Origin: Escherichia phage vB_EcoM-fFiEco06
DNA length: 64,000 nucleotides
Strand: one strand, 5' to 3'
Sequence record: NC_054914.1
Made by a program: the position numbers and the translations under genes. This document shows, piece after piece, positions 41,521-61,985 of this stretch (position 1 is its first letter; every line of letters starts with the position of its first letter). A model generated the notes under the pieces. It searched no databases. It worked only from the letters and a program-made list of their open reading frames with translations, and had not been told where the DNA came from.

Positions 41521-41580
41521 CGATAGTTGTATAGTACCATGGAAGGACAAGGATGTAAACCGTTTTGTGAAAAAATTTTT
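41521..41580 (-). promoter_or_regulatory. T4-type early promoter with A/T-rich UP element
   Basis: Minus strand: AAAATTTTTTCACAAAACG GTTTACA …17 bp… TACTATAC. Confidence 0.55.
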
Positions 41581-41590
41581 GAAATAAAAA

Positions 41591-41609
41591 GGGGACCTCT
41601 AGGGTCCCC
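41591..41609 (-). terminator. Terminator hairpin after gene 32 (ggggacc-ctaga-ggtcccc + T-run)
   Basis: 7-bp GC stem immediately downstream of the gp32 stop, followed by TTTTTATTT on the minus strand. Confidence 0.6.
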
Positions 41610-41631
41610 AATTAATTAGTAATATAATCTA

Positions 41632-42540
41632 TTAAAGGTCATTCAAAAGGTCATCTAGGTCCGTGTCATCAGCACTAGATGAACTGCCAGAGCTTGAGCT
41701 CATAAAATCATCTTCAGTTTTTGTATTGAAGTCATCAACATTGAATGCATCCAAATCATCAGCAACTTTATCAGCTTTCTTAGCAGCAGTTGCAGCAGCA
41801 CCGCCCATCACAGCAGTTCCCATAACTTGACCGAATTTAGTGCTCAGTTCTTCAAACGATTTGAATTTATCTTTAGAAGTCATTTCAGAAAGGTCAACCA
41901 TTTGTTCGAACAGTTCTTTCTGGAAAGATTCATCGTCAATGTTTGGAATCGCAGATTGATTCAGGAATTTAGATTCGTCGTAGTTACTAAATCCAGAAAC
42001 CTGTTTAACTTTCAGTACAAAGTTAGCACCTTCCCACGGACAAGTTACATCAACCGGAGTTTCACCCATTTCAACATCAACCGCAATCATCGCGTTGATT
42101 TTATCCCAGATTTTCTTACCGAAACGATATTTAAATACTTTACCTTCATTTTCTGGAGCAGCTGGGTCTTTTACAACAAGAATATTAGCCCAGTAAGAAG
42201 TTTTACGTTTAACAAGACTGTACTCTTTATTGTCAGTGTTGTACAGATCATTTTTACTGATGTACTGACATACTGGACAAGAATCGTAATCACCGTGGGT
42301 AGATGAACAGTTTTCAATATACCATTTACCATTTTTCTTGAAACCGTGATTTACAAGAATTGCGAACGGTGCTTGTTCATCATTTTTAGACGGAAGAAAA
42401 CGAATTACTGCTTGACCGTTACCCGCATTGTCGAGTTTCAGTTTCCACTCGCCTTTATCTTCAGAAGAAAAACCACCTTTATTTCCAGCCAGTTTAGCCA
42501 TTTGTGCAGCGAGTTCAGCAGTAGATTTACGTTTAAACAT
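41632..42540 (-). CDS. 32: Single-stranded DNA-binding protein gp32
   Basis: 302 aa; acidic Ser/Asp-rich C-terminal tail. Confidence 0.95.
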
Positions 42541-42642
42541 TTTTATTTCCTTTTTAATTTAATTAACAGTTGGTGCTATGACGATGTATGACCTCATAGC
42601 TGGTCAGTGAGATAATTATAATCTATTTATAATAAGCAATTA
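42541..42642 (-). promoter_or_regulatory. Gene 32 leader with candidate middle (MotA-box) and late promoters
   Basis: Minus strand ATTGCTTA box, TATAAATA, then TATAAT; A/U-rich leader before the ATG. Confidence 0.5.
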
Positions 42643-43293
42643 ATACTTGCAAGATTTCACAGTTTCAATGAAAACATTTTTAGCTTTCTGTGAATCAATA
42701 TTTAAAATTTTTCTATAAGCCTTTAACTTTATAGAATAATTATTCCAGACTAAATTATCAGTCTGTTCATCATGTTTATCAATTATATTTAAAAACGAAT
42801 CAAGCAAGATAAACGTTTCAAACGAAATTATATTCGATTGAAGTAGTTTAAAAATATAACTTGATTGAACTTTTGGATTATACTCAAAGATTTCTTTAAA
42901 AGCAGAAACTTCAACTTTCTTACTAAAATAATAAATGTTGCGAATATCTTCTTCAAACTTAAATTTAATTTGCTTTAAGCGTCCGATATATTCACGATAA
43001 AACACAAGTGCATCAGCGTCAGAGATGTCGCCAATCCAAGCATCCTGGTTAGCAACAAGATTGCTTATAAAGATTAAAGCAAGTTCCTTTAATTTATATT
43101 TTTCTGATAACTTCTGGAAAAAATACTTATCCCTTCGCTTTTGATAAGCGGCATCAGACACCCGCATGCACCAATTATACTTAATAACATCATACTTTCC
43201 ATTCATATGTTGTTTTATCATTAAGTATAATTTATAAACTGATTTACCATCAATGTATCTTTCACCACCAGCAGGCATGCGGAGTTTAATCAT
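42640..43293 (-). CDS. 59: Helicase loader gp59
   Basis: 217 aa; synteny. Confidence 0.9.
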   Translation of the reverse strand: MIKLRMPAGGERYIDGKSVYKLYLMIKQHMNGKYDVIKYNWCMRVSDAAYQKRRDKYFFQKLSEKYKLKELALIFISNLVANQDAWIGDISDADALVFYREYIGRLKQIKFKFEEDIRNIYYFSKKVEVSAFKEIFEYNPKVQSSYIFKLLQSNIISFETFILLDSFLNIIDKHDEQTDNLVWNNYSIKLKAYRKILNIDSQKAKNVFIETVKSCKY

Positions 43294-43628
43294 AGTAGAA
43301 AATCTAATGTATTAGTTTTTTCACAACGAACAACAGAAGGACGTAAAAGATTTTCGTCAATGGCTTCTGACTGAATTTTTTCAATTATACCCGAAGGAAT
43401 AAATTTAGCAAATTGAGTTTCAGGAATAGAGTTTTCTTCTAAGAATGCTGTTGTAGCTTCAAGATAACTCATTCCAAACTCTTCTACCATTTTTTCAATA
43501 ATAAATCCATTTTCTTGACGATCAAGAAGCTTTGCTATTTCATCCTTTTCTTTCTTGATTGAAAGTTCTTTTTCTGAAAGACCGGTCTCATCGACCGGAC
43601 GAATGTCATTTAGAGAAAACTGTGTCAT
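43290..43628 (-). CDS. 33: Late transcription co-activator gp33
   Basis: 112 aa from MTQFSLND…; the track ORF carries a 3-residue upstream extension. Confidence 0.88.
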   Translation of the reverse strand: MTQFSLNDIRPVDETGLSEKELSIKKEKDEIAKLLDRQENGFIIEKMVEEFGMSYLEATTAFLEENSIPETQFAKFIPSGIIEKIQSEAIDENLLRPSVVRCEKTNTLDFLL

Positions 43629-43875
43629 AAAGTTCAACTACCTCTTCAGTTTCAGCTTCAAACACATCACGGTTATCTTTATGATACAAAGCTAATAGAC
43701 GATTAAACATCTTACCATCAACGCCAAGTTCATCTTTGGCACGAATTCGAATATCTTTAATCAGTTCATTATAACCGGAAATTTTCAGTTTATGATCAGA
43801 TGCTTCTTTAATAAATTTAGCCAAGTCTTCGCCATGGATAGCTTCATCAAATTCAACCATTTCTTTTTTAGCCAT
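43606..43875 (-). CDS. dsbA: Double-stranded DNA-binding protein DsbA
   Basis: 89 aa; synteny. Confidence 0.85.
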   Translation of the reverse strand: MAKKEMVEFDEAIHGEDLAKFIKEASDHKLKISGYNELIKDIRIRAKDELGVDGKMFNRLLALYHKDNRDVFEAETEEVVELYDTVFSK

Positions 43876-43883
43876 TATTCACC

Positions 43884-44801
43884 TCAAAATTCATTAATGC
43901 TATTAGTTAATTTAGAAAGACCCGCTTTTACAAAATATGAATAAATTTTGCCACGCGGTGGTAATTTATATGAATTATAGTAATTCACAATGTTTGAAGC
44001 AATATTATCAGGAATATAATCAAAATCAATTAGAACTAAATTTTCTTTATAACGATTATACTCAGATTCTGAGAGAAGCACCTTAGCTTGCTCACGGTCA
44101 TTAGCAATAGCTTCAACGATTGAAGTTTTCATTGAAGGAGTTCGTTCACCTTCAACTCTGGTAAACCAAAAGTCAGATCGTACTTTAACTGAAGCAACGT
44201 TATCCTTTTTGTCGCCTTTAAGGATTTTAGTCATACAGTCAATTTCAGCAGAACCGCTTTTAATTTTAACCCATTTCTTATGCATCGGTGACCATTGCTT
44301 AACATTTGGATATTTGTGAAGCTGTGTAAAGTCACCATCCGACGAAATGATTAAAATCTTGTGTCCTTCTAAAGAGAACTTTTTAACAAGAACAGCAATA
44401 TGGTCATCTGCTTCATACTTATCAATATCCATAACAATGTATGGCATATAAGCTTTCAATTCATCTATAACTTTATGGCTGGATTCAAAATAACCTTCCC
44501 AGTCCCAAGTAGATTCTTCTCGTGCTTTTCCACGGTTTTTCTTATAATAATAAGCAAAATCACGACGCCAGTATCCAGATTTCGCGTTATCAATACACAG
44601 CACAATTTTAGTGTATCCAAGCGTTTTTGCTTTTTTGACATTAAACTTAATTGAGTTCAATATCAAATGACGAACCATTGATAAATTAATTTTTTCTTTA
44701 TCTGGGAAGTTTACCAGAGCAGTTGAAAGAGCAATTTGACTAAAGTCAATAAAGCAAATTCCTTCTTTGTAATCTTCATCCAGCATCATTTCTAAATCCA
44801 T
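43884..44801 (-). CDS. rnh: RNase H / 5'-3' exonuclease
   Basis: 305 aa from MDLEMML…; FEN-type acidic residues. Confidence 0.9.
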   Translation of the reverse strand: MDLEMMLDEDYKEGICFIDFSQIALSTALVNFPDKEKINLSMVRHLILNSIKFNVKKAKTLGYTKIVLCIDNAKSGYWRRDFAYYYKKNRGKAREESTWDWEGYFESSHKVIDELKAYMPYIVMDIDKYEADDHIAVLVKKFSLEGHKILIISSDGDFTQLHKYPNVKQWSPMHKKWVKIKSGSAEIDCMTKILKGDKKDNVASVKVRSDFWFTRVEGERTPSMKTSIVEAIANDREQAKVLLSESEYNRYKENLVLIDFDYIPDNIASNIVNYYNSYKLPPRGKIYSYFVKAGLSKLTNSINEF

Positions 44802-44863
44802 ATGAACCTCGTTCAATTAGTGAGATTTCTATTATATACTATCTAAATCTTAAAGTAAACAGG

Positions 44864-44871
44864 TATAAATA
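44864..44871 (+). promoter_or_regulatory. Late promoter TATAAATA upstream of gene 34
   Basis: Exact match about 35 nt upstream of the ATG. Confidence 0.6.
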
Positions 44872-44905
44872 CTTATTATTGAAAACACAATAGGAGCCCG
44901 GGAGA

Positions 44906-47900
44906 ATGGCCGAGATTAAAAGAAAGTTCAGAGCAGAAGATGGTCTGGACGCAGGTGGCGATAAAATAATCAACGTAGCTTTAGCTGATCGTACCGTAGG
45001 AACTGACGGTGTTAACGTTGATTACTTAATTCAAGAAAACACAGTTCAGCAATATGACCCAACTCGTGGATATTTAAAAGATTTTGTAATCATTTATAAT
45101 AATCGTTTTTGGGCAGCAACGGATAATATTCCAAAACCTGCTGGAAATTTTAATAGAATTCGTTGGAAAGCATTACGTACTGATGCCGTATATACAACCG
45201 TATCATCTGGACCATATCAATTAAAATCCGGAGAAGCAATTTCAGTAGATACATCAGTTGGCAATGACATTGAGTTTACTTTACCACCTTCTCCGCTTGA
45301 TGGAGAAACCGTAATAATTCAAGATATCGGTGGAAAACCTGGCATAAATCAGGTTAAAATAAATTCTTCAAATCAGAGTATTGTCAATTTTAGAGGTGAA
45401 CAGGTACGTTCAGTTTTAATGACTCATCCAAAGTCACAGATGGTATTCATTTTTAATAATCGTTTGTGGCAAATGTATATTGCTGATTATAGCAGAGAAG
45501 CTGCGATTGTTACTCCATCGACTGCATATCAAGCACAATCTAATGATTTTATCGTACGTAGATTTACTTCTGCTGCACCAATTAATGTTAAACTTCCGAG
45601 ATTTGCTAATCATGGCGATATTATTAATTTCGTTGATTTAGATAAACTGAATCCACTTTATCATACAATTGTTACTACATACGATGAAACGACTTCAGTA
45701 CAAGAAGTTGGAACTCATTCCATTGAAGGCCGTACATCGATTGACGGTTTCTTGATGTTTGACGATAATGAGAAATTGTGGAGATTGTTTGACGGGGATA
45801 GTAAAGCACGTTTACGCATTATAACAACTAATTCAAATATTCGTCCAAATGAAGAAGTCATGGTATTTGGCGCGAATAATGGAACAACCCAAACAATTGA
45901 ACTTCAGCTTCCGACTGATATTTCTGTTGGTGATACTGTTAAAATTTCCATGAATTACATGAGAAAAGGACAAACAGTTAAAATCAAAGCTGCTGGTGAA
46001 GATAAAATTGCTTCTTCAGTTCAATTGCTGCAATTCCCAAAACGTTCAGAATATCCGCCTGAAGCTGAATGGGTAACAGTTCAAGAATTAGTTTTTAACG
46101 GTGAAACTAATTATGTACCAGTTTTGCAACTTGCTTATATAGAAGATTCTGATGGAAAATACTGGGTTGTACAGCAAAACGTTCCAACAGTTGAAAGAGT
46201 CGATTCTTTAAATAATTCTACTAGAGCAAGATTAGGCGTAATTGCTTTAGCTACACAAGCTCAAGCAAATGCTGATTTAGAAAATTCTCCGCAAAAAGAA
46301 TTGGCAATTACTCCAGAAACGTTAGCTAATCGTACTGCTACAGAAACTCGCAGAGGTATTGCAAGAATAGCAACTACTGCTCAAGTGAATCAGAACACCA
46401 CATTCTCTTTTGCAGATGACCTTATCATCACTCCTAAAAAGCTGAATGAAAGAACTGCTACAGAAACTCGCAGAGGTGTCGCTGAAATTGCTACGCAGCA
46501 GGAAACTAATACAGGTACTGATGATACTACAATCATTACTCCTAAAAAGCTTCAAGCTCGCCAAGGTTCTGAATCATTATCTGGTATTGTAACTTTTGTA
46601 TCTACCGCAGGAGCTACTCCAGCTTCTAGTCGTGAATTAAATGGTACGAATGTTTATAATAAAAACACTAATAATTTAGTTGTTTCACCTAAAGCTTTGG
46701 ATCAGTATAAAGCTACTCCAACGCAACAAGGCGCAGTAATTTTAGCAGTTGAAAGTGAAGTAATTGCTGGACAAAGCCAAGAAGGATGGGCAAATGCGGT
46801 TGTAACGCCAGAAACGTTACATAAAAAGACATCAACTGATGGAAGAATTGGTTTAATTGAAATTGCTACGCAAAGTGAAGTTAATACAGGAACTGACTAT
46901 ACTCGTGCAGTCACTCCTAAAACTTTAAATGACCGTAGAGCAACTGAAAGTTTAAGTGGTATAGCTGAAATTGCTACGCAAGTTGAATTCGACGCAGGCG
47001 TCGACGATACTCGTATCTCTACACCATTAAAAATTAAAACCAGATTTAATAGTACTGATCGTACTTCTGTTGTTGCTCTATCTGGATTAGTTGAATCAGG
47101 AACTCTCTGGGACCATTATACCCTTAATATTCTTGAAGCAAATGAGACACAGCGTGGTACACTTCGTGTAGCTACACAAGTTGAAGCTGCTGCAGGAACA
47201 TTGGATAATGTTCTAATAACTCCTAAAAAGCTTTTAGGTACTAAATCTACTGAAGCGCAGGAAGGCGTTATTAAAGTTGCAACTCGGTCTGAAACTGTAG
47301 CTGGAACGTCAGCAAATACTGCTGTATCTCCAAAAAATTTAAAATGGATTGTGCAGAGTGAACCTACTTGGGCAGCGACTACTGCGATAAGAGGTTTTGT
47401 TAAAACTTCGTCTGGTTCAATTACATTCGTTGGTAATGATACAGCTGGTTCAACACAGCCATTAGAATCATATGAGAAAAATGGTTATGCAGTATCACCA
47501 TATGAATTAAATCGCGTATTAGCAAATTATTTGCCGTTAAAAGCAAAAGCCGTAGATAGTAATTTATTAGATGGTCTAGATTCGCTCCAGTTCATTCGTA
47601 GGGACATTGCACAAACAGTTAATGGTTCACTAACCTTAACCCAACAAACGAATCTGAGTGCCCCTCTTGTATCATCTAGTACTGCTACATTCGGTGGATC
47701 AGTTTCAGCAAATAGTACATTAACTATTTCTAATACTGGAACGGCAACTCGTCTGATTTTTGAGAAAGGACCTCAAACTGGAACAAACCCGGCTCAAACG
47801 ATGACAGTCAGAGTGTGGGGAAATCAATTTAGCGGGGAATCAGACACAACACGTTCTACCGTATTTGAAGTTAGTGATGAAACGTCTAGTCATTTTTATT

Positions 47901-48775
47901 CTCAGCGTAATAAAGCTGGAAATATAACATTTAATATCAACGGTACAGTAACACCGATAAATGTTAATGCTTCAGGAACATTGAATGCAAATGGTGTAGC
48001 AACATTTGGTAATTCAGTCACTGCAACTGGTGAAATTATTTCTCGAAGCGCAAATGCTTTCCGTGCTATTAACGGAAATTATGGTTTCATTGTTCGCAAT
48101 GATGGGTCAGTAACGAATTTTATGCTTACTGCATCGGGTGATCAAACTGGCGGATTTAATGGATTGCGTCCTTTAGCTATTAATAATGCATCTGGCCAAG
48201 TAACGATTGGTGAAAGCTTAATCATTGCAAAAGGTGCTACTATAAGTTCGGGTGGTTTGACTGTTAACTCGAGAATTCGTTCTCAGGGTACTAAAACCTC
48301 TGATTTATATACCCGTGCGCCAACATCTGATACAGTAGGATTCTGGTCAATCGATATTAATGATTCAGCCACTTATAACCAGTTCCCGGGTTATTTTAAA
48401 ATGGTTGAAAAAACTAATGAAGTGACTGGACTTCCATACTTAGAACGTGGTGAAGAAGTTAAATCTCCTGGTACATTGACTCAGTTTGGTAACACACTTG
48501 ATTCACTTTACCAAGATTGGATTACTTATCCAACGACCCCAGAAGCACGTACCACTCGCTGGACACGTACATGGCAGAAAACCAAAAACTCTTGGTCAAG
48601 TTTTGTTCAGGTATTTGACGGAGGTAACCCTCCTCAACCTTCAGATATAGGAGCGATCCCATCTGATAATGGAATAATAGGTAATCTTACTATTCGCGAT
48701 TTCTTGCGAATTGGTAATGTTCGCATTATTCCTGACCCAGTGAATAAAACTGTTAAATTTGAGTGGATTGAATAA
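44906..48775 (+). CDS. 34: Long tail fibre proximal subunit gp34
   Basis: 1289 aa; repetitive …ETRRG(I/V)A… segments. Confidence 0.93.
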   Translation: MAEIKRKFRAEDGLDAGGDKIINVALADRTVGTDGVNVDYLIQENTVQQYDPTRGYLKDFVIIYNNRFWAATDNIPKPAGNFNRIRWKALRTDAVYTTVSSGPYQLKSGEAISVDTSVGNDIEFTLPPSPLDGETVIIQDIGGKPGINQVKINSSNQSIVNFRGEQVRSVLMTHPKSQMVFIFNNRLWQMYIADYSREAAIVTPSTAYQAQSNDFIVRRFTSAAPINVKLPRFANHGDIINFVDLDKLNPLYHTIVTTYDETTSVQEVGTHSIEGRTSIDGFLMFDDNEKLWRLFDGDSKARLRIITTNSNIRPNEEVMVFGANNGTTQTIELQLPTDISVGDTVKISMNYMRKGQTVKIKAAGEDKIASSVQLLQFPKRSEYPPEAEWVTVQELVFNGETNYVPVLQLAYIEDSDGKYWVVQQNVPTVERVDSLNNSTRARLGVIALATQAQANADLENSPQKELAITPETLANRTATETRRGIARIATTAQVNQNTTFSFADDLIITPKKLNERTATETRRGVAEIATQQETNTGTDDTTIITPKKLQARQGSESLSGIVTFVSTAGATPASSRELNGTNVYNKNTNNLVVSPKALDQYKATPTQQGAVILAVESEVIAGQSQEGWANAVVTPETLHKKTSTDGRIGLIEIATQSEVNTGTDYTRAVTPKTLNDRRATESLSGIAEIATQVEFDAGVDDTRISTPLKIKTRFNSTDRTSVVALSGLVESGTLWDHYTLNILEANETQRGTLRVATQVEAAAGTLDNVLITPKKLLGTKSTEAQEGVIKVATRSETVAGTSANTAVSPKNLKWIVQSEPTWAATTAIRGFVKTSSGSITFVGNDTAGSTQPLESYEKNGYAVSPYELNRVLANYLPLKAKAVDSNLLDGLDSLQFIRRDIAQTVNGSLTLTQQTNLSAPLVSSSTATFGGSVSANSTLTISNTGTATRLIFEKGPQTGTNPAQTMTVRVWGNQFSGESDTTRSTVFEVSDETSSHFYSQRNKAGNITFNINGTVTPINVNASGTLNANGVATFGNSVTATGEIISRSANAFRAINGNYGFIVRNDGSVTNFMLTASGDQTGGFNGLRPLAINNASGQVTIGESLIIAKGATISSGGLTVNSRIRSQGTKTSDLYTRAPTSDTVGFWSIDINDSATYNQFPGYFKMVEKTNEVTGLPYLERGEEVKSPGTLTQFGNTLDSLYQDWITYPTTPEARTTRWTRTWQKTKNSWSSFVQVFDGGNPPQPSDIGAIPSDNGIIGNLTIRDFLRIGNVRIIPDPVNKTVKFEWIE

Positions 48776-48783
48776 GAGGTATT

Positions 48784-49899
48784 ATGGAAAAATTTATGGC
48801 AGAGTTTGGACAAGGATATGTCCAAACGCCATTTTTATCGGAAAGCAATTCAGTAAGATATAAAATAAGCATAGCGGGTTCTTGCCCGCTTTCTACTGCG
48901 GGGCCATATGTTAAATTTCAGGATAATCCCGTTGGAAATCAAACATTTAGTGCAGGTCTTCATTTAAGAGTTTTTGACCCTTCTACAGGAGCATTAGTTG
49001 ATAGTAAGTCATATGCTTTTTCTACTTCAAATAATACTACATCAGCTGCTTTTGTTAGTTTCATGAATTCTTTGTCAAACAATAGACTTGTTGCTATATT
49101 AACTAGCGGAAAGGTTAATTTTCCTCCTGAAGTGGTATCTTGGTTAAGGGGAGCAGGAACTTCAGTTTTTCCATCAGATTCAGTATTGTCAAGATTTGAC
49201 GTATCATATGCTGCTTTTTATACTTCTTCTAAAAGAGCTATTGCATTAGAGCATGTTAAACTAAGTAATAGAAAAAGCACAGATGATTATCAAACTATTT
49301 TAGATGTTGTATTTGATAGTTTAGAAGACGTCGGAGCGACAGGATTTCCAAAAAGAACTTATGAAAGTGTCGAGCAATTCATGTCAGCAGTTGGTGGAAC
49401 TAATAACGAAATTGCGCGATTGCCAACTTCAGCTGCTATAAGTAAACTTTCTGACTATAATTTAATTCCTGGTGATGTTCTTTATCTTAAAGCACAGTTA
49501 TATGCTGATGCTGATTTACTTGATCTTGGAACTACAAACATATCCATTCGTTTTTATGATGCATCAAATGGATATATTTCCTCGACCCAAGCTGAGTTTA
49601 CTGGGCAAGCTGGGTCTTGGGAATTAAAAGAAGACTATGTAGTTGTTCCAGAAAACGCCGTAGGATTTACGATATATGCGCAAAGAACTGCTCAAGCAGG
49701 TCAAGGCGGCATGAGAAATTTAAGTTTTTCTGAAGTATCAAGAAATGGCGGCATTTCAAAACCTGCCGAATTTGGCGTCAACGGTATTCGCGTTAATTAT
49801 GTCTGTGAATCGGCTTCACCTCCAGATATAATGGTACTTCCTACACAAGCCTCTTCTAAAACTGGCAAAGTGTTTGGACAGGAATTTAGAGAAGTTTAA
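48784..49899 (+). CDS. 35: Long tail fibre hinge protein gp35
   Basis: 371 aa; synteny. Confidence 0.9.
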   Translation: MEKFMAEFGQGYVQTPFLSESNSVRYKISIAGSCPLSTAGPYVKFQDNPVGNQTFSAGLHLRVFDPSTGALVDSKSYAFSTSNNTTSAAFVSFMNSLSNNRLVAILTSGKVNFPPEVVSWLRGAGTSVFPSDSVLSRFDVSYAAFYTSSKRAIALEHVKLSNRKSTDDYQTILDVVFDSLEDVGATGFPKRTYESVEQFMSAVGGTNNEIARLPTSAAISKLSDYNLIPGDVLYLKAQLYADADLLDLGTTNISIRFYDASNGYISSTQAEFTGQAGSWELKEDYVVVPENAVGFTIYAQRTAQAGQGGMRNLSFSEVSRNGGISKPAEFGVNGIRVNYVCESASPPDIMVLPTQASSKTGKVFGQEFREV

Positions 49900-49903
49900 A
49901 CTG

Positions 49904-49930
49904 AGGGAGCCTTCGGGTTCCCTTTTTCTT
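49904..49930 (+). terminator. Hairpin (gggagcc-ttcg-ggttccc) + T-run after gene 35
   Basis: GC stem with TTCG loop followed by TTTTTCTTT. Confidence 0.5.
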
Positions 49931-49938
49931 TATAAATA
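49931..49938 (+). promoter_or_regulatory. Late promoter TATAAATA upstream of gene 36
   Basis: Exact match about 24 nt upstream of the ATG. Confidence 0.6.
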
Positions 49939-49961
49939 ATATTAAAATAAAGGGGCATATA

Positions 49962-50612
49962 ATGGCTGATTTAAAAGTAGGTTCAACTGTGGGTGGATCT
50001 GTCATTTGGCATCAAGGAAATTTTCCATTGAATTCAGCCGGTGACGATGTACTCTACAAATCATTTAAAATATATTCAGAATATAATAAACCGCAGGCAG
50101 CTGATAACGATTTCGTTTCTAAAGCTAATGGTGGTACTTACGCCGGTCCAATTACTATTAATTACGGGGTAAATAGTTATCTTCAATTAAGTAATAATGA
50201 AACCCCTATCCGAATTCGTTCTGGTGGCGGCACTGGTAATACTCTTGTAGTTGGTGGCTCTTCTGGCGGTATTAGTTTTAGACCAGCAGGTAGTGAAATC
50301 ACTACTGGACAAATTACTATTACGCCAGAAGGTTTGACAACATTTACCAAAGCTGTAACGGCTCCATCTGTAACTGTTACATCTACTCCTTCCGCAGCAT
50401 CTGATGTTACTCGCAAAGATTATGTTGATGGAGCAATAAATACTGTTACAGCAAATGCAAACTCTAGGGTATTACGCTCTGGAGACACTATGACAGGAAA
50501 TTTAACTGCGCCAAACCTTTTTTCACAGAATCCTGCATCTCAACCTTCACACGTTCCACGATTTGACCAAATCGTAATTAAGGATTCTGTTCAAGATTTC
50601 GGCTATTATTAA
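49962..50612 (+). CDS. 36: Long tail fibre distal connector gp36
   Basis: 216 aa; synteny. Confidence 0.88.
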
Positions 50613-50620
50613 GAGGACTT

Positions 50621-53605
50621 ATGGCTACTTTAAAACAAATACAATTTAAAAGAAGCAAAACTGCAGGTCAACGTCCTGCTGCTTCAGTATTAGCCGAAGG
50701 TGAATTGGCTATAAACTTAAAAGATAAAACAATTTTCACAAAAGATGACTCAGGTAGTGTTATAGAATTAGGTTTAAAATATGGAGGAACAATTGATGGT
50801 TCTTTAACTGTTAATGGAAATATAATTGGAAATTTAACAGGTAACGCTGCAACTGCAACGAAATTAAAAACAGCACGAAAAATTAATGGTATATCCTTTG
50901 ATGGGTCAAAAGATATCACGCTAACTCCATCTGACATAAATGTCAATAGCACAACGTTTATAAAAAATAATGGCGAATTACCTGTTGATGCTAATTTAGA
51001 TACGTATGGGCCTGTTGAAGAATGTCTTGGAGTTTGGTCGAAAGCAACTTCAACCAACGCTCAACCAGCAAATAAATTTCCAGAAGAAAATGCTGTAGGT
51101 GTGCTAGAAGTATTTGTGGCCGGTCAATTTGCTGGTACTCAGAGATATACAACTAGATACGGAAATGTTTATATTCGTTCCTTGACTGCTACATGGAACG
51201 GAGTAAATGGTCCGTGGAGTGTGTGGCGAAATATTCAATCTGGTACTCGTCCACTGTCAACAACAATTGATCTTAATGATCTAGGAGGCGCTGAACACTT
51301 TGGTTTGTGGCGAAATAGTTCAAATTCCATTGCTACCTTTGACAGAAATTTCCCAGAAGAAGGATCGTCCGCTCAAGGACTTTTAGAAGTATATGAAGGT
51401 GGAAACTATTCTCGCACACAGAGATATACGACCAGATTTGGTGTTGTTTATACTCGTTGTCTTACTGCTGCGTGGGATGCTTCTGCGCCTAAATGGGGAC
51501 CTTGGCAACAAGTCGGTAATGTCACACCGGCGACTTTCTATGACGGAGATCTGAATGATTTTAAAACTCCTGGGTTATATAATATTTTAGGCACTGATGC
51601 CGTTATTAACTGTCCTACCGGTGAAGGTTTGCCGACTGTTATTGTTGGTTTGCTGGAAGTTAAACAGCGTGCTTCTGGCGGTGCTATTTTCCAAAAATTT
51701 ACTACTGCCGGAACGGGTGCAACTACTCGCGATCGTATTTTTGAGCGTGCATATACTGGTGGTGTGTGGGGTGCATGGAACGAAGTATATACATCTTATT
51801 CTCTTCCAATTACTTTGGGTATGGGTGGTATTAAAGCTCAATTAGCGGAGTTAGATTGGCAAACCTTTGATTTTGTTCCTGGTAGTATGTTTAGCGTTCC
51901 TTTGAACAAAATAAAGAACATGCCAGCAAATATGGATTGGGGGACGATTGACGGAAACCTGGTTATGTTTTCCGTTGGTCCTAGCGAACACACTAGCACA
52001 GGGCGTACTGTTCAGGTTTGGCGCGGTACTGTATCCCAGACAAACTACCGTTATTTTGTCGTTCGTGTGTTCGGTAATTCTGGAAATAGAACTTGCACAG
52101 TCCGCCGTGTTGTTCTTGAAGATGGTCGCCACACATGGACAGCTCAACAAGATTTTAATGGTGCTGTTAACTTCGGTGCTCCTACCAATTTTAACTCTAC
52201 TGTTAACCTTAATAACACTACCACATTTAAAACAGAAGTTAAATTCCGCTCATCTAATGCATTCCGTATGTATGGCGGAAAATTTGGTACAATTTTCCGT
52301 AATGATGGAGAGAGTCTTTATATTCTTTCCACCGACGAAAATGATCAAGATGGAAACTTTAATACAAATAGACCTTTCCGTTATGAATTAAGAACTGGTG
52401 ATGTTACTTTGGGTGGTACTAGTGGTGCTAACGTTTTAAAATTAAAACGCGATTCTCTCACCGCATTTTTTGGTGGTGATATTAATATAAAAGGCTTGAT
52501 GACTTTTGATGCCGGACGTTTAGGATCACGAGATTATTTTAAATTTAACCATTGGGGTGATAGTAATAATGCGCGCGATAACATTATTCAGTTAGAAGAC
52601 AGCAAAGGCGTTCATTTTTCCACTGAACGTACTTTAGCGACTGGTGCAATTAAAACTAAATTCTTTGGTGAAGTTGAATCCGAAGGTAGATTGATTATTA
52701 AACGTCCGGGTGATTCTATTGTATTATCAACAACTGCTGGTAATGCTTTGCATATTCGTGGTGACGTAGACGGGAGTGGTAACTGGTATATTGGTAAGGG
52801 TGGTGCTGATAATTCGCTAGCATTTTATAGCTATGCTACTCAGGCGGCAGTACATATCACAAACAATGGTGAGATTTCGCTAAATCCACAAAATATCGCA
52901 ATGGTTAACGTTAACCGCGATCGTGTACACATTAACGGTTCTGGATGGATTGCTAGACAACCGGGTGATTGGGGCAACCAATGGCGAGTAGAAGCTCCAT
53001 TATTCGTCGATCATGGTTATGTTTCACAGGATTGTTATTATCCAATTATTAAAGGAAGAAGTGTAATCACCAATCAAGGGTTTGTAACTGCCGTCGATCT
53101 TGGTATTCGTCGTGTCCCTAACAATTGGGGGCAAGCAATTATTCGTGTTGGATCTGCAGAGGCATCGCCAGCGGCTGGACACCCTAACGCGGTATTTGAA
53201 TTTCATTACGACGGTACTTTCTATTCTCCTGGTAATGGTAACTTTAACGATGTGTATATTCGTTCCGATGGTCGTCTTAAGATTAATAAAAAAGAGCTAG
53301 AAAACGGAGCACTTGAAAAAGTATGTCGACTGAAAGTTTATATTTACGATAAAGTTAAGTCTATTAAAGACCGTAGTGTTATTAAACGTGAAGTTGGTAT
53401 TATTGCTCAGGACCTTGAAAAGGAATTACCGGAAGCTGTATCTAAAGTTGAAGTTGATGGATCTGATGTTCTGACAATTTCTAACTCTGCTGTGAATGCT
53501 CTTTTAATTAAGGCTATTCAGGAAATGAGTGAAGAAATTAAAGAATTGAAAACGCCTCTCTTTACTAAAATTGCTCGCAAAATTAGTAAATATTTTAAAT
53601 TCTAA
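50621..53605 (+). CDS. 37: Long tail fibre distal subunit gp37 with C-terminal intramolecular-chaperone-type domain
   Basis: 994 aa; C-terminal ~110 aa (…[15 protein letters not shown]…) resembles tailspike auto-processing chaperone domains. Confidence 0.9.
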
Positions 53606-53612
53606 CAACAAG

Positions 53613-53627
53613 GGGGAAATGCCCCCT
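53613..53627 (+). terminator. Hairpin (ggggg-aaatg-ccccc) after gene 37
   Basis: 5-bp G/C stem followed by a short T tract. Confidence 0.45.
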
Positions 53628-53640
53628 TTGGAGTATAATT

Positions 53641-54441
53641 ATGGCAGTAGTTGGTGTTCCTGGTTGGATTGGAAGTTCAGCCGCAAATGAAACAGGACAG
53701 CGCTGGATGAGTCAAGCGGCTGGTCAATTAAGATTGGGTGTTCCTTGCTGGATGAGTCAATTTGCAGGTCGCTCACGAGAAATTATTCACACCCTTGGAG
53801 CGGACCATAACTTCAATGGTCAATGGTTCCGAGATAGATGTTTTGAGGCAGGTAGTGCACCTATAGTGTTTAATATTACCGGAAATTTGGTATCATATTC
53901 TAGAGACGTTCCTTTATTCTTCATGTATGGAGATACACCTAATGAATATGTTCAGTTGAATATTGGTGGCGGCGTCCATATGTGGGGTAGAGGTGGACAA
54001 GGTGGATGGACCCATTCCGGCGGAGATGGTAATGGTCAACAAGGTGGTCATTGTATTCAAAATGACATCGGTGGACGATTAAGAATTAATAACGGTGGAG
54101 TAATTTGTGGTGGAGGTGGAGGTGGAGGTGGTATCGCTTATCGTCCTCACTCTGGTGCAAATTGGCAAGATATTGGTGGTGGTGGAGGAAGACCATTTGG
54201 CCCAGGAGGAGGCGGAGGTTATTCCGGCGGCGCAGCTTCTTATGATGGCCCAGGAGGTGGTTATAATTATGGTAATGCTCACTCTGGCCAGGGTGGTGAT
54301 GCTGGCGCAAATGGACAAAATGCCTGGTATGATGGCGGTAAAGTTCTAAAAGTTGGAGCTGGTGGCGCTGCCGGATATGCTGTTATAGGATCAGCTCCAA
54401 CATGGCAAAATGTTGGAGTAATATATGGTCCAAGGGTATAA
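53641..54441 (+). CDS. 38: gp38 tail-fibre tip adhesin, glycine-rich (T2-type)
   Basis: 266 aa with several poly-Gly motifs (GGGGGGGG, GGGGG, GGGGG) separated by variable segments. Confidence 0.88.
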
Positions 54442-54472
54442 TTTTGAATAAATATCCTTAAAAGGAGGGTCT

Positions 54473-55129
54473 ATGGCAGCACCTAGAATATCATTTTCGC
54501 CCTCTGATATTCTATTTGGTGTTCTAGATCGCTTGTTCAAAGATAACGCTACCGGGAAAGTTCTTGCTTCTCGGGTAGCTGTCGTAATTCTTTTGTTTAT
54601 GATGGCGATTGTTTGGTATAGGGGAGATAGTTTCTTTGAGTACTATAAGCAATCAAAGTATGAAACATACAGTGAAATTATTGAAAAGGAAAGAAATGCA
54701 CGCTTTGAATCTGTCGCCCTGGAACAACTCCAGATAGTTCACATATCATCTGAGGCAGACTTTAGTGCGGTGTATTCTTTCCGCCCTAAAAACTTAAACT
54801 ATTTTGTTGATATTATAGCATATGAAGGAAAATTACCTTCAACAATAAGTGAAAAATCACTTGGAGGATATCCTGTTGATAAAACTATGGATGAATATAC
54901 AGTTCATTTAAATGGACGTCATTATTATTCCGACTCAAAATTTGCTTTTTTACCAACTAAAAAGCCTACTCCCGAAATAAACTACATGTACAGTTGTCCA
55001 TATTTTAATTTGGATAATATCTATGCTGGAACGATAACCATGTACTGGTATAGAAATGATCATATAAGTAATGACCGCCTTGAATCAATATGTGCTCAGG
55101 CGGCCAGAATATTAGGAAGGGCTAAATAA
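54473..55129 (+). CDS. t: Holin T
   Basis: 218 aa; single N-terminal transmembrane segment and large periplasmic domain. Confidence 0.92.
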   Translation: MAAPRISFSPSDILFGVLDRLFKDNATGKVLASRVAVVILLFMMAIVWYRGDSFFEYYKQSKYETYSEIIEKERNARFESVALEQLQIVHISSEADFSAVYSFRPKNLNYFVDIIAYEGKLPSTISEKSLGGYPVDKTMDEYTVHLNGRHYYSDSKFAFLPTKKPTPEINYMYSCPYFNLDNIYAGTITMYWYRNDHISNDRLESICAQAARILGRAK

Positions 55130-55414: not shown

Positions 55415-55567
55415 TCAATTAGTTGACTTTGTTATAATATCATCAGACGCTTGATTTGTAAACTGGTCTGTGTTATTTTCTTCAAAAATTTTTTCTACGA
55501 ATTCCTTGAACGACTCGCGTTCCTGAGCTACATTATGCTCGATTACCTTTTCAAGATTATGACTCAT
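55415..55567 (-). CDS. Hypothetical small protein (not in ORF track)
   Basis: 50-codon ORF whose ATG overlaps the arn TGA (ATGA); hand-translated. Confidence 0.4.
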   Translation of the reverse strand: MSHNLEKVIEHNVAQERESFKEFVEKIFEENNTDQFTNQASDDIITKSTN

Positions 55568-57221: not shown

Positions 57222-57857
57222 TCACAGTTCAGATGCTACGGTGATTACTGCTTCAATGTTTTCTGCCGAGCGTTTAATGTCAAGATACACATTGCCGTTT
57301 TTAGCGATTTTACATGACATTCCAATATCAGTAAATTTCTGAATATGGTGTTCCATCATTTTGTATCCAAAAATTCGCATATTTCCATTGTTATTAATTT
57401 CAAAATTACGAATTCCGTGAGTGCGTTTTTCTAAAATAGCAAGATAGTTACTGCGGTAAGTTTCAACCTTTTTAAGAACAAATCCATTTTCATCTAAAAG
57501 TTTTAGCATAAGGTCTTTATCTTCTTCCATATCGGAAGTAATCTCACGAGCTTTACGAGTTGCTCGTTTTTTCAGTAGTTCAGGAGCATTTTCCTGTGCA
57601 TATAAAGTTGCCGCATTTGAAATAATATCCTGAGCTTCACCAGTAATGATTAATCCATCACCAGATTTCTCCACCAGGCCTTTTTTAATCAATACCCCAA
57701 TATTACTATTAACTACTGCGTTACCTAAATCTGGATGCACCTCACGAACTTCTGCAGCTGTAATGAAATCTTTCTTAGCAATAGTAATTAAAATCGCAGC
57801 AGTTTTTTCATTCAGAACATCGTTAGAAGCTTTGATGATGTAAGTTACTTTAGACAT
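57222..57857 (-). CDS. motA: MotA middle-transcription activator
   Basis: 211 aa; matches my recollection of T4 MotA. Confidence 0.92.
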   Translation of the reverse strand: MSKVTYIIKASNDVLNEKTAAILITIAKKDFITAAEVREVHPDLGNAVVNSNIGVLIKKGLVEKSGDGLIITGEAQDIISNAATLYAQENAPELLKKRATRKAREITSDMEEDKDLMLKLLDENGFVLKKVETYRSNYLAILEKRTHGIRNFEINNNGNMRIFGYKMMEHHIQKFTDIGMSCKIAKNGNVYLDIKRSAENIEAVITVASEL

Positions 57858-57885
57858 TTTAATCTCCGTTTCAGTTCATTTATTT

Positions 57886-57925
57886 GATAGGTCTATAGTA
57901 TCATGTTTAAAGCAGAAGTAAACAC
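57886..57925 (-). promoter_or_regulatory. Early promoter upstream of motA
   Basis: Minus strand GTTTAC (-35) and GATACTATAGA-type -10; shares the tttcagttcatttatttgatag leader with the cassette at 58214. Confidence 0.5.
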
Positions 57926-57962
57926 TTTTTTGCACTCTTTTTCAAGAGCTCTAATAAAGTAC

Positions 57963-58190
57963 TTACTTAATGTTCAGATTACGAACTTCGATTTCGTCTT
58001 CATGGGCAAAATCAAACTGTTTGAATTCTGTGCCACCTTTAAATTTAAAAATCATTGTGAAGAAAGTCAGAACACCAGGTTTTTCTTCACGAACTCCACA
58101 GATATCATATTCAATACCATCTACAACCAGTTTGTTAGCAGTCAGAGCATTTTTAGCTTTAACGATTTCGTTTTCGATTTTAAATTTCAT
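57963..58190 (-). CDS. Hypothetical protein (motA.1-like)
   Basis: 75-aa ORF with GGAGA Shine-Dalgarno. Confidence 0.55.
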   Translation of the reverse strand: MKFKIENEIVKAKNALTANKLVVDGIEYDICGVREEKPGVLTFFTMIFKFKGGTEFKQFDFAHEDEIEVRNLNIK

Positions 58191-58230
58191 TTTTGTATCT
58201 CCGGGTTGTTTGTTTCAGTTCATTTATTTG

Positions 58231-58286
58231 ATAGTTGTATAGTACCATAAAGCTTTATGCTTGTAAACCGTTTTGTGAAAAAATTT
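58231..58286 (-). promoter_or_regulatory. Early promoter with UP element
   Basis: Near-identical to the cassette at 41521..41580 (gatagttgtatagtacca … tgtaaaccgttttgtgaaaaaatttt). Confidence 0.5.
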
Positions 58287-58287
58287 T

Positions 58288-58307
58288 AAAATAAAAAGGG
58301 AGAGCCG
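58288..58307 (-). terminator. Terminator hairpin (gggagagc-cgag-gctctccc) + T-run
   Basis: 8-bp GC stem; minus-strand TTTTTATTTT follows. Confidence 0.55.
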
Positions 58308-58322
58308 AGGCTCTCCCTAAAA

Positions 58323-59797: not shown

Positions 59798-59801
59798 AAA
59801 T

Positions 59802-59942
59802 TTACCATACTAGTGAATGTAGTGCCATAATAACATCAGAAATGAAAAGCACGACTTGAATTAATCCGAACATTACTCCATAATATAGTGCTACCAATAA
59901 AGTAGCAAGGGCTAATGAATAGCCCAAGATTTTCTTAATCAT
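59802..59942 (-). CDS. Small hydrophobic protein (not in ORF track)
   Basis: 46-codon ORF; ATG overlaps the stop of the upstream small gene; hand-translated. Confidence 0.4.
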   Translation of the reverse strand: MIKKILGYSLALATLLVALYYGVMFGLIQVVLFISDVIMALHSLVW

Positions 59943-60093
59943 TAGTAGATAACAACACAAATGTTAAATATGCACACATACCCTGGGCTAAAGCTTGTGA
60001 AAACACACTGCTAGCATCGATACAGATAGTTAAAACACATGCTACTATCCAACAAATAAATGAAATAACTCCTAATAATTTTGCGATATTCAT
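59935..60093 (-). CDS. Small membrane protein, possibly Ac (acridine sensitivity)
   Basis: 52-aa hydrophobic Cys-containing ORF between stp and 52; assignment by position only. Confidence 0.45.
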   Translation of the reverse strand: MNIAKLLGVISFICWIVACVLTICIDASSVFSQALAQGMCAYLTFVLLSTND

Positions 60094-60103
60094 AATATTC
60101 TCC

Positions 60104-60190
60104 TCAACTATTTTTAGAACCTAAAATACCAAAGTTTTTAAGATTGTTACGATAGAACTGCATCACATGTTCGTTATGGAAATTACTCAT
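60104..60190 (-). CDS. stp: Stp peptide (suppressor of three-prime phosphatase)
   Basis: 28-codon [21 protein letters not shown]… matching my recollection of the T4 Stp N-terminus; hand-translated. Confidence 0.75.
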
Positions 60191-60648
60191 TAATATGCCT
60201 GCAAAACAAATTTAAAGTTATCAGCCAACATACGGTTCATTTCTTCAAGTGTTTGATACTCAGAATGATGATTACGAGTAAACGCCAACGCTAACTGACC
60301 TTTATCAAATCCTGTCGTCAGAGGTTTCATCTTAGAAGCAGGAAGATAAAATACTGTGTATGGAACATTATTATTTGCAATAGTACGCGCAAGCTGAGAC
60401 CGACGCTGACGAATATGACTTAGAACCGCACTGAATCCTTGCTTAGAACGCTGATTACCTACATAAAATCGTGCAGACACGCACGGATTACTAAATGGAC
60501 GACCATCTAATTTACTCACTAAAAAGTAAAATCCAGGTTTAGACAAAATGTCTTTGTGCGGAGTTCCCAAAAACCACTCACCACCCTTGATTGTACCAAT
60601 AACAGTTGCGCCTGCATTATTCAGATCAGTAACAGTCATATATTTCAT
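60190..60648 (-). CDS. ndd: Ndd nucleoid disruption protein
   Basis: About 152 aa from MKYMTVTDL…; the track ORF has a 16-residue upstream extension. Confidence 0.85.
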
Positions 60649-60708
60649 ATTAATTTCCTCTAAATTATTTTCTACTCCAAGGCCGTATGAATACACACGG
60701 CCGATAAA

Positions 60709-60968
60709 TTAATCGTCGCAGTCGACGCTCAATTCCCAGAATTCTTCTACGGTATAAGTTTCAGTATCATTTTCAATACAGAAACGTTCATTACTATTAT
60801 TTTCTAAAGTAGCGTTAACTGTCATTTTCTCGCTAGTGCTTTATTTTCTAAAGTAGCGTTAACTGTCATTTTCTCGCTAGTGCTCTTAAGAGGTGAAATA
60901 CGAATTAACTGATCACCGTTATCTAAACAAAAAATTTCACCAACTTTTACATCTTTAAAACTTTTCAT
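60709..60968 (-). pseudogene. Small ORF (ancestral 71 aa) frameshifted by a 44-bp tandem duplication
   Basis: ATG at 60968 with GAGGTGA SD; duplication shifts frame to a premature TGA (48 aa); removing one copy restores a 71-codon ORF ending at 60709. Confidence 0.55.
60797..60884. repeat. Perfect 44-bp direct tandem duplication (2 copies)
   Basis: ttattttctaaagtagcgttaactgtcattttctcgctagtgct at 60797-60840 and 60841-60884. Confidence 0.9.
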
Positions 60969-61083
60969 AATTCACCTCAAGGAGTATAAAATCCAAATGC
61001 AGTTGTTGACCATCCCATCCAATATGGGAAATTTGCACCAATGTAAAACATAAGAATATAAAACCAACCACTCAGCAAATTCA

Positions 61084-61281
61084 TCATTTTACACCATTCC
61101 AAATTGTTTCAACCACGGATTTTAAACCATTTTGATGAATATCCATTCCGACTACCGTCATCAAATAAATTCCAACTACAACTGAACCTAAGGCAAAAAT
61201 CAGCATGAAAATGAATAAAGCCGGAAAAATATTATCGAAAAACCATTCAATAAATGTAAAAGCACTGCGTTTACGCTTCAT
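61084..61281 (-). CDS. Small membrane protein
   Basis: Start taken at MKRKRSAF… (GAGG SD); two hydrophobic segments. Confidence 0.5.
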   Translation of the reverse strand: MKRKRSAFTFIEWFFDNIFPALFIFMLIFALGSVVVGIYLMTVVGMDIHQNGLKSVVETIWNGVK

Positions 61282-61288
61282 ATTTTCC

Positions 61289-61402
61289 TCACATAAATCC
61301 AAAGTAAACGTTTAATACATCAATCATTAAAACGATTGGGAATATACTCAAAACTATTAGTATTATAACTACATTCCATATAGCTTTAACAATCTTTTTC
61401 AT
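61289..61402 (-). CDS. Small membrane protein (37 aa)
   Basis: Internal ATG with GGAGG SD inside the 61289..61534 track ORF. Confidence 0.45.
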   Translation of the reverse strand: MKKIVKAIWNVVIILIVLSIFPIVLMIDVLNVYFGFM

Positions 61403-61420
61403 TTTCTGTTCCTCCGTAGT

Positions 61421-61465
61421 TGATAGGGTAATAGTACCACGGAAGAACAGTCTTGTAAACAACTT
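61421..61465 (-). promoter_or_regulatory. Early promoter
   Basis: Minus strand GTTTACAAGACTGTTCTTCCGTGGTACTATTACC (-35 and -10). Confidence 0.45.
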
Positions 61466-61642
61466 TAAAAATATTCGTAATAAATGTGAATACCAACTAC
61501 TACCGCTGAAACTTGCACAACCCACCACGCACAAGCAATAAGTACAGAATTCAAAATTTTCATAATAACCTCATCACAAAAGTAAATGTTAAACAAATTA
61601 CTGGAATACTAATTAACCAAACAAAACACCACCATAATGAAC

Positions 61643-61906
61643 TCATAGTTCAATCTCAACGATTTCCAAGTGTTTTTGTTTTATTGCCTTTTTAACACAA
61701 TCATGGACTAAATATGACCATGAATCATTATATTCTCCATTAACTAATCGTTGGAGATCTTCACGTGATGATAAGTAAGGTTGATCTGATTCCCATTTTG
61801 ATAAAAATACTGCAGTAAAAATATCTCCTTCATCTGTAGTTGAAGTCGTAAATGCAATAAATTCACCGGTAATTTTATGTTTAGCGTAATAAAATTTAAA
61901 TTTCAT
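61643..61906 (-). CDS. Hypothetical protein (denB.1-like position)
   Basis: Start at MKFKFYYAK… with GGAGG SD; the track ORF's upstream extension overlaps the promoter. Confidence 0.55.
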   Translation of the reverse strand: MKFKFYYAKHKITGEFIAFTTSTTDEGDIFTAVFLSKWESDQPYLSSREDLQRLVNGEYNDSWSYLVHDCVKKAIKQKHLEIVEIEL

Positions 61907-61926
61907 TTTTACTCCTCCGTAGCTGA

Positions 61927-61985
61927 TAGTTGTATAGTACCACGGTCCTTGTGGTATGTAAACTGTTTTGTGAAAATTTTTTAAA
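61927..61985 (-). promoter_or_regulatory. Early promoter with UP element
   Basis: Third copy of the gatagttgtatagtacca … tgtaaac … ttttgtgaaaa cassette. Confidence 0.5.

Follow-up and report, generated by a model that had tools for sequence, protein, structure and literature searches.

The early promoters of bacteriophage T4 have been catalogued for decades, in the lists of Liebig and Rueger in 1989, Wilkens and Rueger in 1994, and Miller and co-workers in 2003. In structural terms they are "UP/−35/TGn/−10" promoters with extra consensus regions (Hinton 2010, PMC2988021). In T4-like phages, promoter/terminator cassettes that bracket and shuffle small accessory open reading frames (ORFs) were described by Arbiol et al. 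(2010, PMC2839356). These PeSL (promoter-early stem-loop) cassettes were extended by Comeau et al. (2014, PMC4122927) to the phage pair T4/PST, with the ndd.4/ndd.5 locus as an example and with a consensus, TTTACW-N17-TAYWAT, that has stem-loops just upstream. Here we analyse a 64,000-nucleotide (nt) stretch, "the window", of Escherichia phage vB_EcoM-fFiEco06 (NC_054914.1), a T4-like phage of the genus Tequatrovirus with ~99.97% identity to Escherichia phage vB_EcoM-fHoEco02, and describe a repeated unit that is present in 13 copies on one strand. Our reading, to which we assign a probability of roughly 85%, is that the units are T4-type early promoters, two of them insulated by terminators, that act as crossover patches as in the PeSL cassette model. 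The kind of element is already known.

Two further systems serve as analogies only. Integron cassettes (attC/attI) are likewise single promoter-associated ORFs, mostly of unknown function, that are gained, lost, or replaced at a repeated site; the window cassettes differ in that no integrase is annotated in the part examined of the near-identical fHoEco02 record (~42.6 kb), that the promoter itself is the repeated site, and that each carries a promoter of its own in place of a shared Pc, and the exchange at them would be most simply explained by homologous recombination. Lambdoid morons (Hendrix et al. 2000, via PMC2839356) are also small accessory genes with their own promoter and terminator. 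The regulatory sequences of morons, however, do not form conserved repeats and are not credited with a role in mobility, whereas in the window it is the conserved promoter blocks that coincide with junctions.

The promoter family and its architecture

An initial annotation of the window reported three near-identical units of about 60 bp, and these are real, with true bounds 1–3 bases away from those it gave: the units lie at 41521–41582, 58229–58290, and 61924–61985 and have 79% identity to the reference copy over 62 nt. An 18-mer within them, GATAGTTGTATAGTACCA, occurs exactly three times in the window, as compared with 0.06 matches in shuffled sequences (0 of 100 shuffles reach 4), and a fourth copy of it, with 3 mismatches, is located at 57886–57903. 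The units are only 79% alike overall because the spacer between the −35 and −10 elements varies; the blocks on either side of the spacer, ~26 nt comprising UP and −35 and ~18 nt comprising TGn, −10, and +1, are almost identical between copies.

A search of the window with the pattern GTTTAC-N16/17-TAnnnT reveals 13 minus-strand sites and, on the plus strand, none. The family is thus larger than had been claimed, and the two related copies that had been placed at 57886–57925 and 61421–61465 are genuine members of it. Under a two-block weight matrix, the 13 family sites score 28–60 bits; nothing else on the two strands exceeds 6.8 bits, and Markov-shuffled sequence peaks at 3.4–7.2 bits. Because these 13 sites also served to train the matrix, their scores are inflated, and the informative part is the absence of intermediate-scoring sites. 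A GTTTAC(A/T) −35 element, positioned 16–18 nt before a TAnnnT −10 element, is present at 13 of 13 sites, including the five originally reported, and the consensus across the 13 is ..aaaAaaatT.CA.AAA...GTTTACa......tgTGaTA.TATA..ccTAtcaa. Read along the minus strand, each unit comprises an A/T-rich UP element, GTTTACA (−35), a 16–17-nt spacer ending in TG(G/A), TACTAT (−10), and ..CTATCAA. In particular, the UP element of the three focal copies, at 41.5k, 58.2k, and 61.9k, is AAAATTTTTTCACAAAAC, and a TG preceding the −10 element is flagged at six family sites (those listed by generic scans), with tgTGa as the consensus before −10. A generic TTGACA/TATAAT σ70 scan gives no enrichment over shuffles (35 versus 37.0 ± 5.9 and 29 versus 21.7 ± 4.6); the generic consensus says little in a genome this AT-rich, and specificity comes only from the extended family pattern.

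The 13 sites all share the orientation of the early genes, on the minus strand; the genes downstream include frd.3, frd.1, motA, asiA, alc, rnh, ORFs of the ndd cluster, 30.7, 30.8, and alt.-3. The late tail-fibre block (44906–55129) contains none of the 13. Transcription starts were predicted from spacing, with TACTAT taken as −12 to −7 and the start taken as the A of the invariant CTATC, 7 nt past the −10 element. The leaders so defined for the five reported copies are 21–42 nt long and end in a GGAG-type ribosome-binding site (RBS).

In alignments, T4 has a promoter at the corresponding position in front of each of frd.3, frd.1, rnh, asiA, ndd.4, and ndd.6 and also, with a different spacer, in front of motA; the minus-strand T4 starts predicted from sequence, in AF158101 coordinates, are 146839 (frd.3), 146107 (frd.1), 163637 (motA), 166771 (ndd.4), and 167050 (ndd.6). 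The window promoters thus resemble T4 early promoters in architecture, strand, and position and differ from them in nothing in kind; the window spacer alleles differ at frd.3 and motA, and the insertion of an accessory ORF, orfX, has given the window phage one copy more than T4. In Yersinia phage fPS-65, a "predicted early promoter" is annotated at four positions (3′ of gene 32, 5′ of motA, 3′ of denB, and 5′ of rnh) and a "terminator" is annotated beside the gene 32 and motA promoter positions; the T4 record AF158101 has no promoter features annotated within 144000–168903. In a preprint (bioRxiv 10.1101/2024.04.04.588121), the frd.3 transcript is one of the most abundant T4 RNAs that carry an NAD cap. 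Such caps are added at initiation, to transcripts with an A at +1, and the finding therefore lends indirect support to a primary +1A start before T4 frd.3.

The early-promoter interpretation put forward in the initial annotation is therefore supported at the level of architecture and sequence, by the full set of T4 early-promoter elements, the early-gene direction, the orthology with T4, and the fPS-65 annotation, and the units are predicted to be active; their early timing would follow by analogy with T4. Specifically, host σ70 RNA polymerase would recognise the UP element AAAATTTTTTCACAAAAC, the −35 element GTTTACA, the extended −10 element TGn, and the −10 element TACTAT, and would start transcription at the A of CTATC.

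The five reported copies had been described as sitting immediately upstream of a short ORF and as often preceded by a GC hairpin terminator. The first description holds, on the minus strand, for four of the five copies (upstream of frd.3, orfX, orfY, and a 37-aa ndd.4-like ORF) and fails for the 57.9k copy, which precedes motA, 211 amino acids (aa) in length; the second holds at 41.5k and 58.2k. The 41.5k copy (41516–41590, minus strand; 53.5 bits) is the promoter of frd.3, with the same UP element, −35 GTTTACA at 41560–41554, spacer TCCTTGTCCTTCCATGG, −10 TACTAT at 41536–41531, a predicted start at A 41524, and a 37-nt leader. The first gene after it, frd.3 (41260–41487, minus strand; 75 aa), matches Pfam Phage_FRD3 (E 8e-40). 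Directly upstream of the promoter, 3′ of gene 32, is an intrinsic terminator (41591–41609, minus strand; GGGGACCCTAGAGGTCCCC then TTTTT; −14.3 kcal/mol), the hairpin of which is identical in T4 and is annotated as "terminator" in fPS-65. The 58.2k copy (58224–58298, minus strand; 55.2 bits) is the promoter of orfX, with −35 at 58268–58262, spacer AGCATAAAGCTTTATGG, −10 at 58244–58239, a predicted start at A 58232, and a 42-nt leader. Its intrinsic terminator, 3′ of motA.1 (58297–58318, minus strand; AGGGAGAGCCTCGGCTCTCCCT then TTTTT; −19.5 kcal/mol, z −5.1), is near-identical in T4, with one loop base different. orfX itself (57963–58190, minus strand; 75 aa) belongs to PHROG 10955, a family of unknown function, and is absent from T4 and fPS-65; it has no match in Pfam, and a PDB sequence search with it was uninformative. 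With a strong intrinsic terminator directly upstream, the promoter-ORF units at 41.5k and 58.2k would be insulated from read-through out of gene 32 and motA.1, respectively.

The 57.9k copy (57880–57953, minus strand; 55.3 bits) is the promoter of motA, of a type found in phage JS10, with GTTTACT at 57923–57917, a 16-nt spacer, −10 at 57900–57895, a predicted start at A 57888, and a 31-nt leader. It is accompanied only by a weak hairpin (57932–57952; −6.7 kcal/mol, z −1.1) that overlaps the UP region. motA (57222–57857, minus strand) has a T4-like coding sequence and encodes the activator of middle transcription, a core regulator. The 61.9k copy (61919–61993, minus strand; 59.5 bits), which overlaps the denB 3′ end, is the promoter of orfY, with −35 at 61963–61957, spacer TACCACAAGGACCGTGG, −10 at 61939–61934, a predicted start at A 61927, and a 21-nt leader. 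orfY (61643–61906, minus strand; 87 aa; PHROG 2390, a family of unknown function) has matches in 575 phage records, in two groups, one at at least 95% and one at 60–80%; in T4 the same promoter drives ndd.6, and in the window orfY is inserted between promoter and ndd.6. The 61.4k copy (61416–61490, minus strand; 44.0 bits), with −35 at 61460–61454, −10 at 61436–61431, a predicted start at A 61424, and a 22-nt leader, is followed directly by the ndd.4-like ORF (61289–61402, minus strand; MKKIVKAIWNVVIILIVLSIFPIVLMIDVLNVYFGFM), which is not annotated in fHoEco02. Folding of the sequence upstream of the 61.9k and 61.4k copies reveals no hairpin.

Other structured elements were also considered. 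An Rfam search of 39500–64000, at E up to 1, gives two chance-level matches elsewhere and none at the cassettes, and a small-RNA or riboswitch reading of the cassettes was dropped on this result. Dyad symmetry across the −10 element is enriched collectively in the 13 promoters relative to random window segments (z about 3): the mean best inverted repeat spanning −10 is 5.85 nt versus 4.92 ± 0.31, and the mean DNA folding energy around −10 is −4.6 versus −3.0 ± 0.55 kcal/mol. A stem-loop inside the promoter was rejected as a defining part, being not significant at the three focal copies and inconsistent from site to site. At individual sites, inverted repeats of 6–8 bp bracket the −10 element in the promoters at 24550–24623, 24979–25053, 28518–28592, 40806–40880, 16024–16098, and 31838–31912, with GGTACAGG...CCTGTACC and GGTAGAG...CTCTACC as examples; these promoters resemble the PeSL subclasses in which a stem-loop overlaps −10.

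The orfX module and the spacer alleles

Between motA.1 and motA, T4 and fPS-65 have one promoter; the window has a promoter, orfX, the weak hairpin, a second promoter, and then motA. The segment 57858–58248 (minus strand), comprising the −10/+1 region of the upstream promoter, the 5′ untranslated region (5′UTR), orfX, the weak hairpin, the JS10-type motA promoter, and the motA 5′UTR, has 94–99% identity to phage JS10 of the genus Dhakavirus (57858–57962, 94%; orfX, 98.7%; 58191–58248, 95%), as compared with 79% for arn.4, 59% for motA, and 72% for gene 52 in the flanks. A three-way alignment of the window, T4, and JS10 reveals a mosaic: T4-like sequence covers motA.1, the terminator, UP, −35, and TACTATACAACTATCAA; JS10-like sequence follows, from the leader over orfX, the hairpin, and the second promoter as far as the motA RBS; and T4-like sequence resumes at the motA start codon. 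Of the two junctions of the JS10-like block, the upstream one falls within the conserved promoter core, TACTATA.A.CTATCAA, and the downstream one at the motA RBS/start. The promoter repeat that brackets orfX covers 57868–57904 and 58212–58248. Pairwise breakpoints between the window and T4, at 57903/58225 and at 61916, are located in or beside promoters.

Within Dhakavirus, the site between gene 52 and motA has three states: one promoter and no ORF (QL01), orfX between two near-identical promoter copies (JS10), and an unrelated 71-aa ORF between the same two promoter copies, with the same hairpin (JS98; the orf253 state). In Salmonella phage S16 (Gelderlandvirus), an orfX homologue is located elsewhere, between the nrdC.11 and nrdC.10 homologues, and is bracketed by promoter-like sequence in which the −10 element and leader (5′UTR) are duplicated; Klebsiella phage K65 has an orfX homologue with the same kind of promoter-like bracket. 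orfX is present in 166 phage records, versus 874 records that match the gene-32 region, and its distribution is thus patchy. The comparison bears out, from sequence, the proposal that the units mark exchangeable gene modules, through the JS10-like orfX block in divergent flanks, the junction in the promoter core, and the three Dhakavirus states. The accompanying picture of cassettes flanking accessory ORFs stands for the 58.2k/57.9k pair around orfX and for no other pair: among the reported copies, orfX is the only ORF truly flanked on both sides, and one copy of that pair drives motA.

The spacers are also distributed across loci. Identical spacers occur at non-orthologous loci, and related alleles occur at several loci across hundreds of records. 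Specifically, the spacer AGCATAAAGCTTTATGG is found in T4 P(frd.3), T4T P(nrdC.10), fPS-65 P(g098c), and window P(orfX); the spacer TCC(T/C)TGT(C/T)CTTCCATGG is found in P(frd.3) of the window phage and of fPS-65 and in RB14 P(imm.1), 3′ of gene 43; the spacer (G/T/A)(A/C)AGGGTAGTAGTGTGA is found in P(frd.1) and, as a near-identical allele, in fPS-65 P(nrdC.10); and the spacer AGTCCCTCGTGTTGTGT is found in the alc and alt.-3 promoters of the window, as part of a 54-nt exact repeat. At nrdC.11/nrdC.10, where T4T has one promoter, fPS-65 has a pair of family promoters that enclose two additional ORFs. At frd.3, T4 and the window phage differ in the spacer alone, with the terminator, UP, −35, −10, and leader the same. 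We know of no sequence requirement for the −35/−10 spacer, and a spacer-only swap would be expected from crossing-over or conversion within the two conserved blocks, not from selection for promoter strength alone.

The window cassettes share several properties with PeSL cassettes (PMC2839356, PMC4122927). They lie in regions of small non-essential ORFs; their sites fit the T4/PST consensus; they mark the edges of places where ORFs have been inserted, deleted, or replaced (orfX, orfY on one side, and the fPS-65 nrdC.11/nrdC.10 insert); and they contain junctions within the cassette sequence (the JS10-like block at CTATCAA and the frd.3 spacer-only swap). The composite of an early promoter with a stem-loop or terminator just upstream, typical of PeSL cassettes, is convincing at only 2 of the 5 reported window copies. 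In the parts consulted, the two papers contain neither the cross-genus orfX example nor the three-state Dhakavirus site.

The exchange and the position of its junction are read directly from the alignments; the recombination mechanism that we propose for it is as follows. The UP/−35 and TGn/−10/+1 blocks would serve as short homology patches for crossovers by the homologous recombination system of the phage, and these crossovers would move promoter-ORF units, or the spacer alone, between loci and between phages, leaving neighbouring transcription units undisturbed.

Alternative explanations

Several observations weigh against parts of the reading that we favour. Some indels relative to T4 touch no promoter, and an 81-aa ORF (40213–40458) and a 109-aa ORF (62471–62800) are not promoter-flanked; orfY, inserted relative to T4, has a promoter on one side only; and a convincing terminator is present at just 2 of the 5 reported copies (41.5k and 58.2k). 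The spacer of the T4 motA promoter matches neither window copy, so that T4 is not simply a deletion product of the window arrangement. Early timing, start sites, and stimulation by Alt (an injected ADP-ribosyltransferase with a reported stimulatory effect on some T4 early promoters) are all carried over from T4 by analogy.

The similarity of the functional blocks, taken alone, could moreover reflect selection for promoter strength, and the copies would then be merely vertically inherited strong promoters, kept alike as optimal polymerase sites and with no role in exchange. Such an account fits the finding that the most conserved columns are known polymerase contacts (UP, −35, TGn, −10, and the start region), as well as the orthology of most copies among the window phage, T4, and fPS-65 and the presence of several indels relative to T4 without flanking promoters. 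It does not fit the identity at non-orthologous loci of spacers that have no requirement known to us (the AGCATAAAGCTTTATGG allele and the alc/alt.-3 allele), the restriction of the frd.3 difference to the spacer with both flanks the same, the position of the JS10-like block junction inside the promoter core, or the alternation of empty, orfX, and orf253 states at a site bounded by the same promoter copies, and we consider it unlikely. It is considerably less probable still that the cassettes are sites of a dedicated site-specific recombinase, attC-like as in integrons and excised as mini-circles, and not substrates of general homologous recombination. An alternation of empty, ORF-A, and ORF-B states between repeated sites does look integron-like, and PeSL mini-circles were detected in RB49/phi1, where the possibility was raised (Arbiol et al., PMC2839356). 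However, the ~42.6 kb examined of the near-identical record fHoEco02 contains no annotated integrase or recombinase, the orfX block has its downstream junction at the motA RBS/start and not in a promoter core, and T4-type recombination needs <50 bp of homology (PMC2839356), so that no dedicated enzyme is required.

We give almost no credence to the view that the units are middle promoters dependent on MotA/AsiA, or late promoters dependent on gp55, in place of early promoters. The −10 elements are like those of middle promoters, and the spacer of the motA promoter holds cTGCTTTA, which resembles the core of a MotA box; the TGCTT, however, is just 7 nt from the −10 element, and the usual distance from MotA box to −10 is about 12 nt. 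All 13 sites have GTTTAC at −35 and a 16–17-nt spacer, whereas middle promoters have a MotA box centred at −30 instead (PMC2988021), and the late motif TATAAATA was not found in the units. As an observation on the motA promoters themselves, both alleles carry the MotA-box core pentamer in the spacer. The window allele (57901–57916, JS10 type) has it as cTGCTTTA; the T4-type allele has it on the opposite strand, as AAGCA. A MotA-box reading of this pentamer was rejected on its spacing, which is wrong for activation. The complement of TGCTT, AAGCA, also occurs in the unrelated AGCATAAAG allele at other loci, and its presence in the motA spacers may therefore be due to chance.

Further family members, neighbouring features, and implications

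Eight further copies complete the family of T4-type early promoters in the window, all on the minus strand. The frd.1 promoter (40806–40880; 53.8 bits) overlaps the frd.2 3′ end and lies just outside the interval originally reported (41521–61985); the asiA promoter (55419–55493; 43.8 bits), within asiA.1, lies inside that interval and had not been listed; and the member upstream of rnh (44816–44890; 28.2 bits) is the weakest match and is annotated in fPS-65. The remaining members, identified by pattern and weight matrix, are upstream of alc (31838–31912), before a hypothetical ORF in the cd.2–cd.3 region (28518–28592), upstream of 30.8 (24979–25053), upstream of 30.7 (24550–24623), and upstream of alt.-3 (16024–16098). 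From the −35 element through to the RBS the alc and alt.-3 copies do not differ. This part of both promoters is covered by an exact direct repeat of 54 nt (16015–16068 and 31829–31882, 15.8 kb apart), which holds a long imperfect hairpin across −10 and the leader.

Searches with the accessory ORFs returned only PHROG families of unknown function, DUF7418, and Phage_FRD3, and PDB sequence searches were uninformative. Near-identical GGGGCCGAAGCCCC-type hairpins are located at 3743–3765, 24134–24156, 62815–62837, and 63044–63066, and some look like bidirectional terminators; one of them (62818–62835) is directly upstream of the 109-aa ORF at 62471–62800, a window-specific DUF7418 ORF. T4 deletion endpoints have been linked to GGGC/GCCC motifs (Mosig et al. 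1998, cited in PMC2839356). In the ndd region, the annotated start of T4 ndd.4 is 5 codons further upstream than that of the ndd.4-like ORF and falls inside a GGAGGA RBS, and on this sequence context it is probably mis-called. An exact 44-nt tandem duplication lies inside ndd.1 (60797–60884) and probably frameshifts the gene; coinciding with it, fHoEco02 annotates ndd.1 as two short ORFs (aa 1–47 and aa 34–71 of T4 Ndd.1).

Apart from the late tail-fibre/holin block (44906–55129), every gene in the reported interval is on the minus strand. The window ends in rIIB, where the fHoEco02 record ends too. Gene 34 (plus strand) contains internal direct repeats of 29–68 nt with 65–79% identity (46307–46977 and 46415–47232), which probably reflect repeated structural motifs of gp34, the proximal long-tail-fibre protein. 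A 158-nt repeat with 72% identity (17929–18086 and 19984–20141) lies in adjacent alt-family paralogues, alt and an alt-like gene. Relative to fHoEco02 (MG781191), the window has 100% identity over 41000–46000 and, over its last 24 kb, 4 mismatches and one 3-nt gap; the gap matches one extra codon (3 nt) in the gene 38 adhesin ORF (53641–54441, plus strand) as compared with the MG781191 coding sequence, and the window is therefore a very close relative and not the identical sequence.

As a discovery the family carries little weight, and the practical outcome is an early-promoter map of the window, with 13 sites and their predicted starts. A more far-reaching idea, which we regard as unlikely, is that the promoter cores are portable att-like crossover sites that move single-gene cassettes among Tevenvirinae genera (Tequatrovirus and Dhakavirus and, in the longer term, Gelderlandvirus), perhaps via mini-circles or a dedicated factor; if this were true, the T-even accessory genome would be an integron-like shared cassette pool and not a lineage-specific set of ORFs. 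Under the reading that we favour, in which T4-type early promoters act as crossover patches for homologous recombination, the orfX cassette shared across genera and the Dhakavirus site with its three states are new illustrations of an element whose kind is already known. For promoter-bounded exchange from one genus to another, the orfX cassette is a sharp example, and it could be used as a test case for PeSL-mediated recombination.

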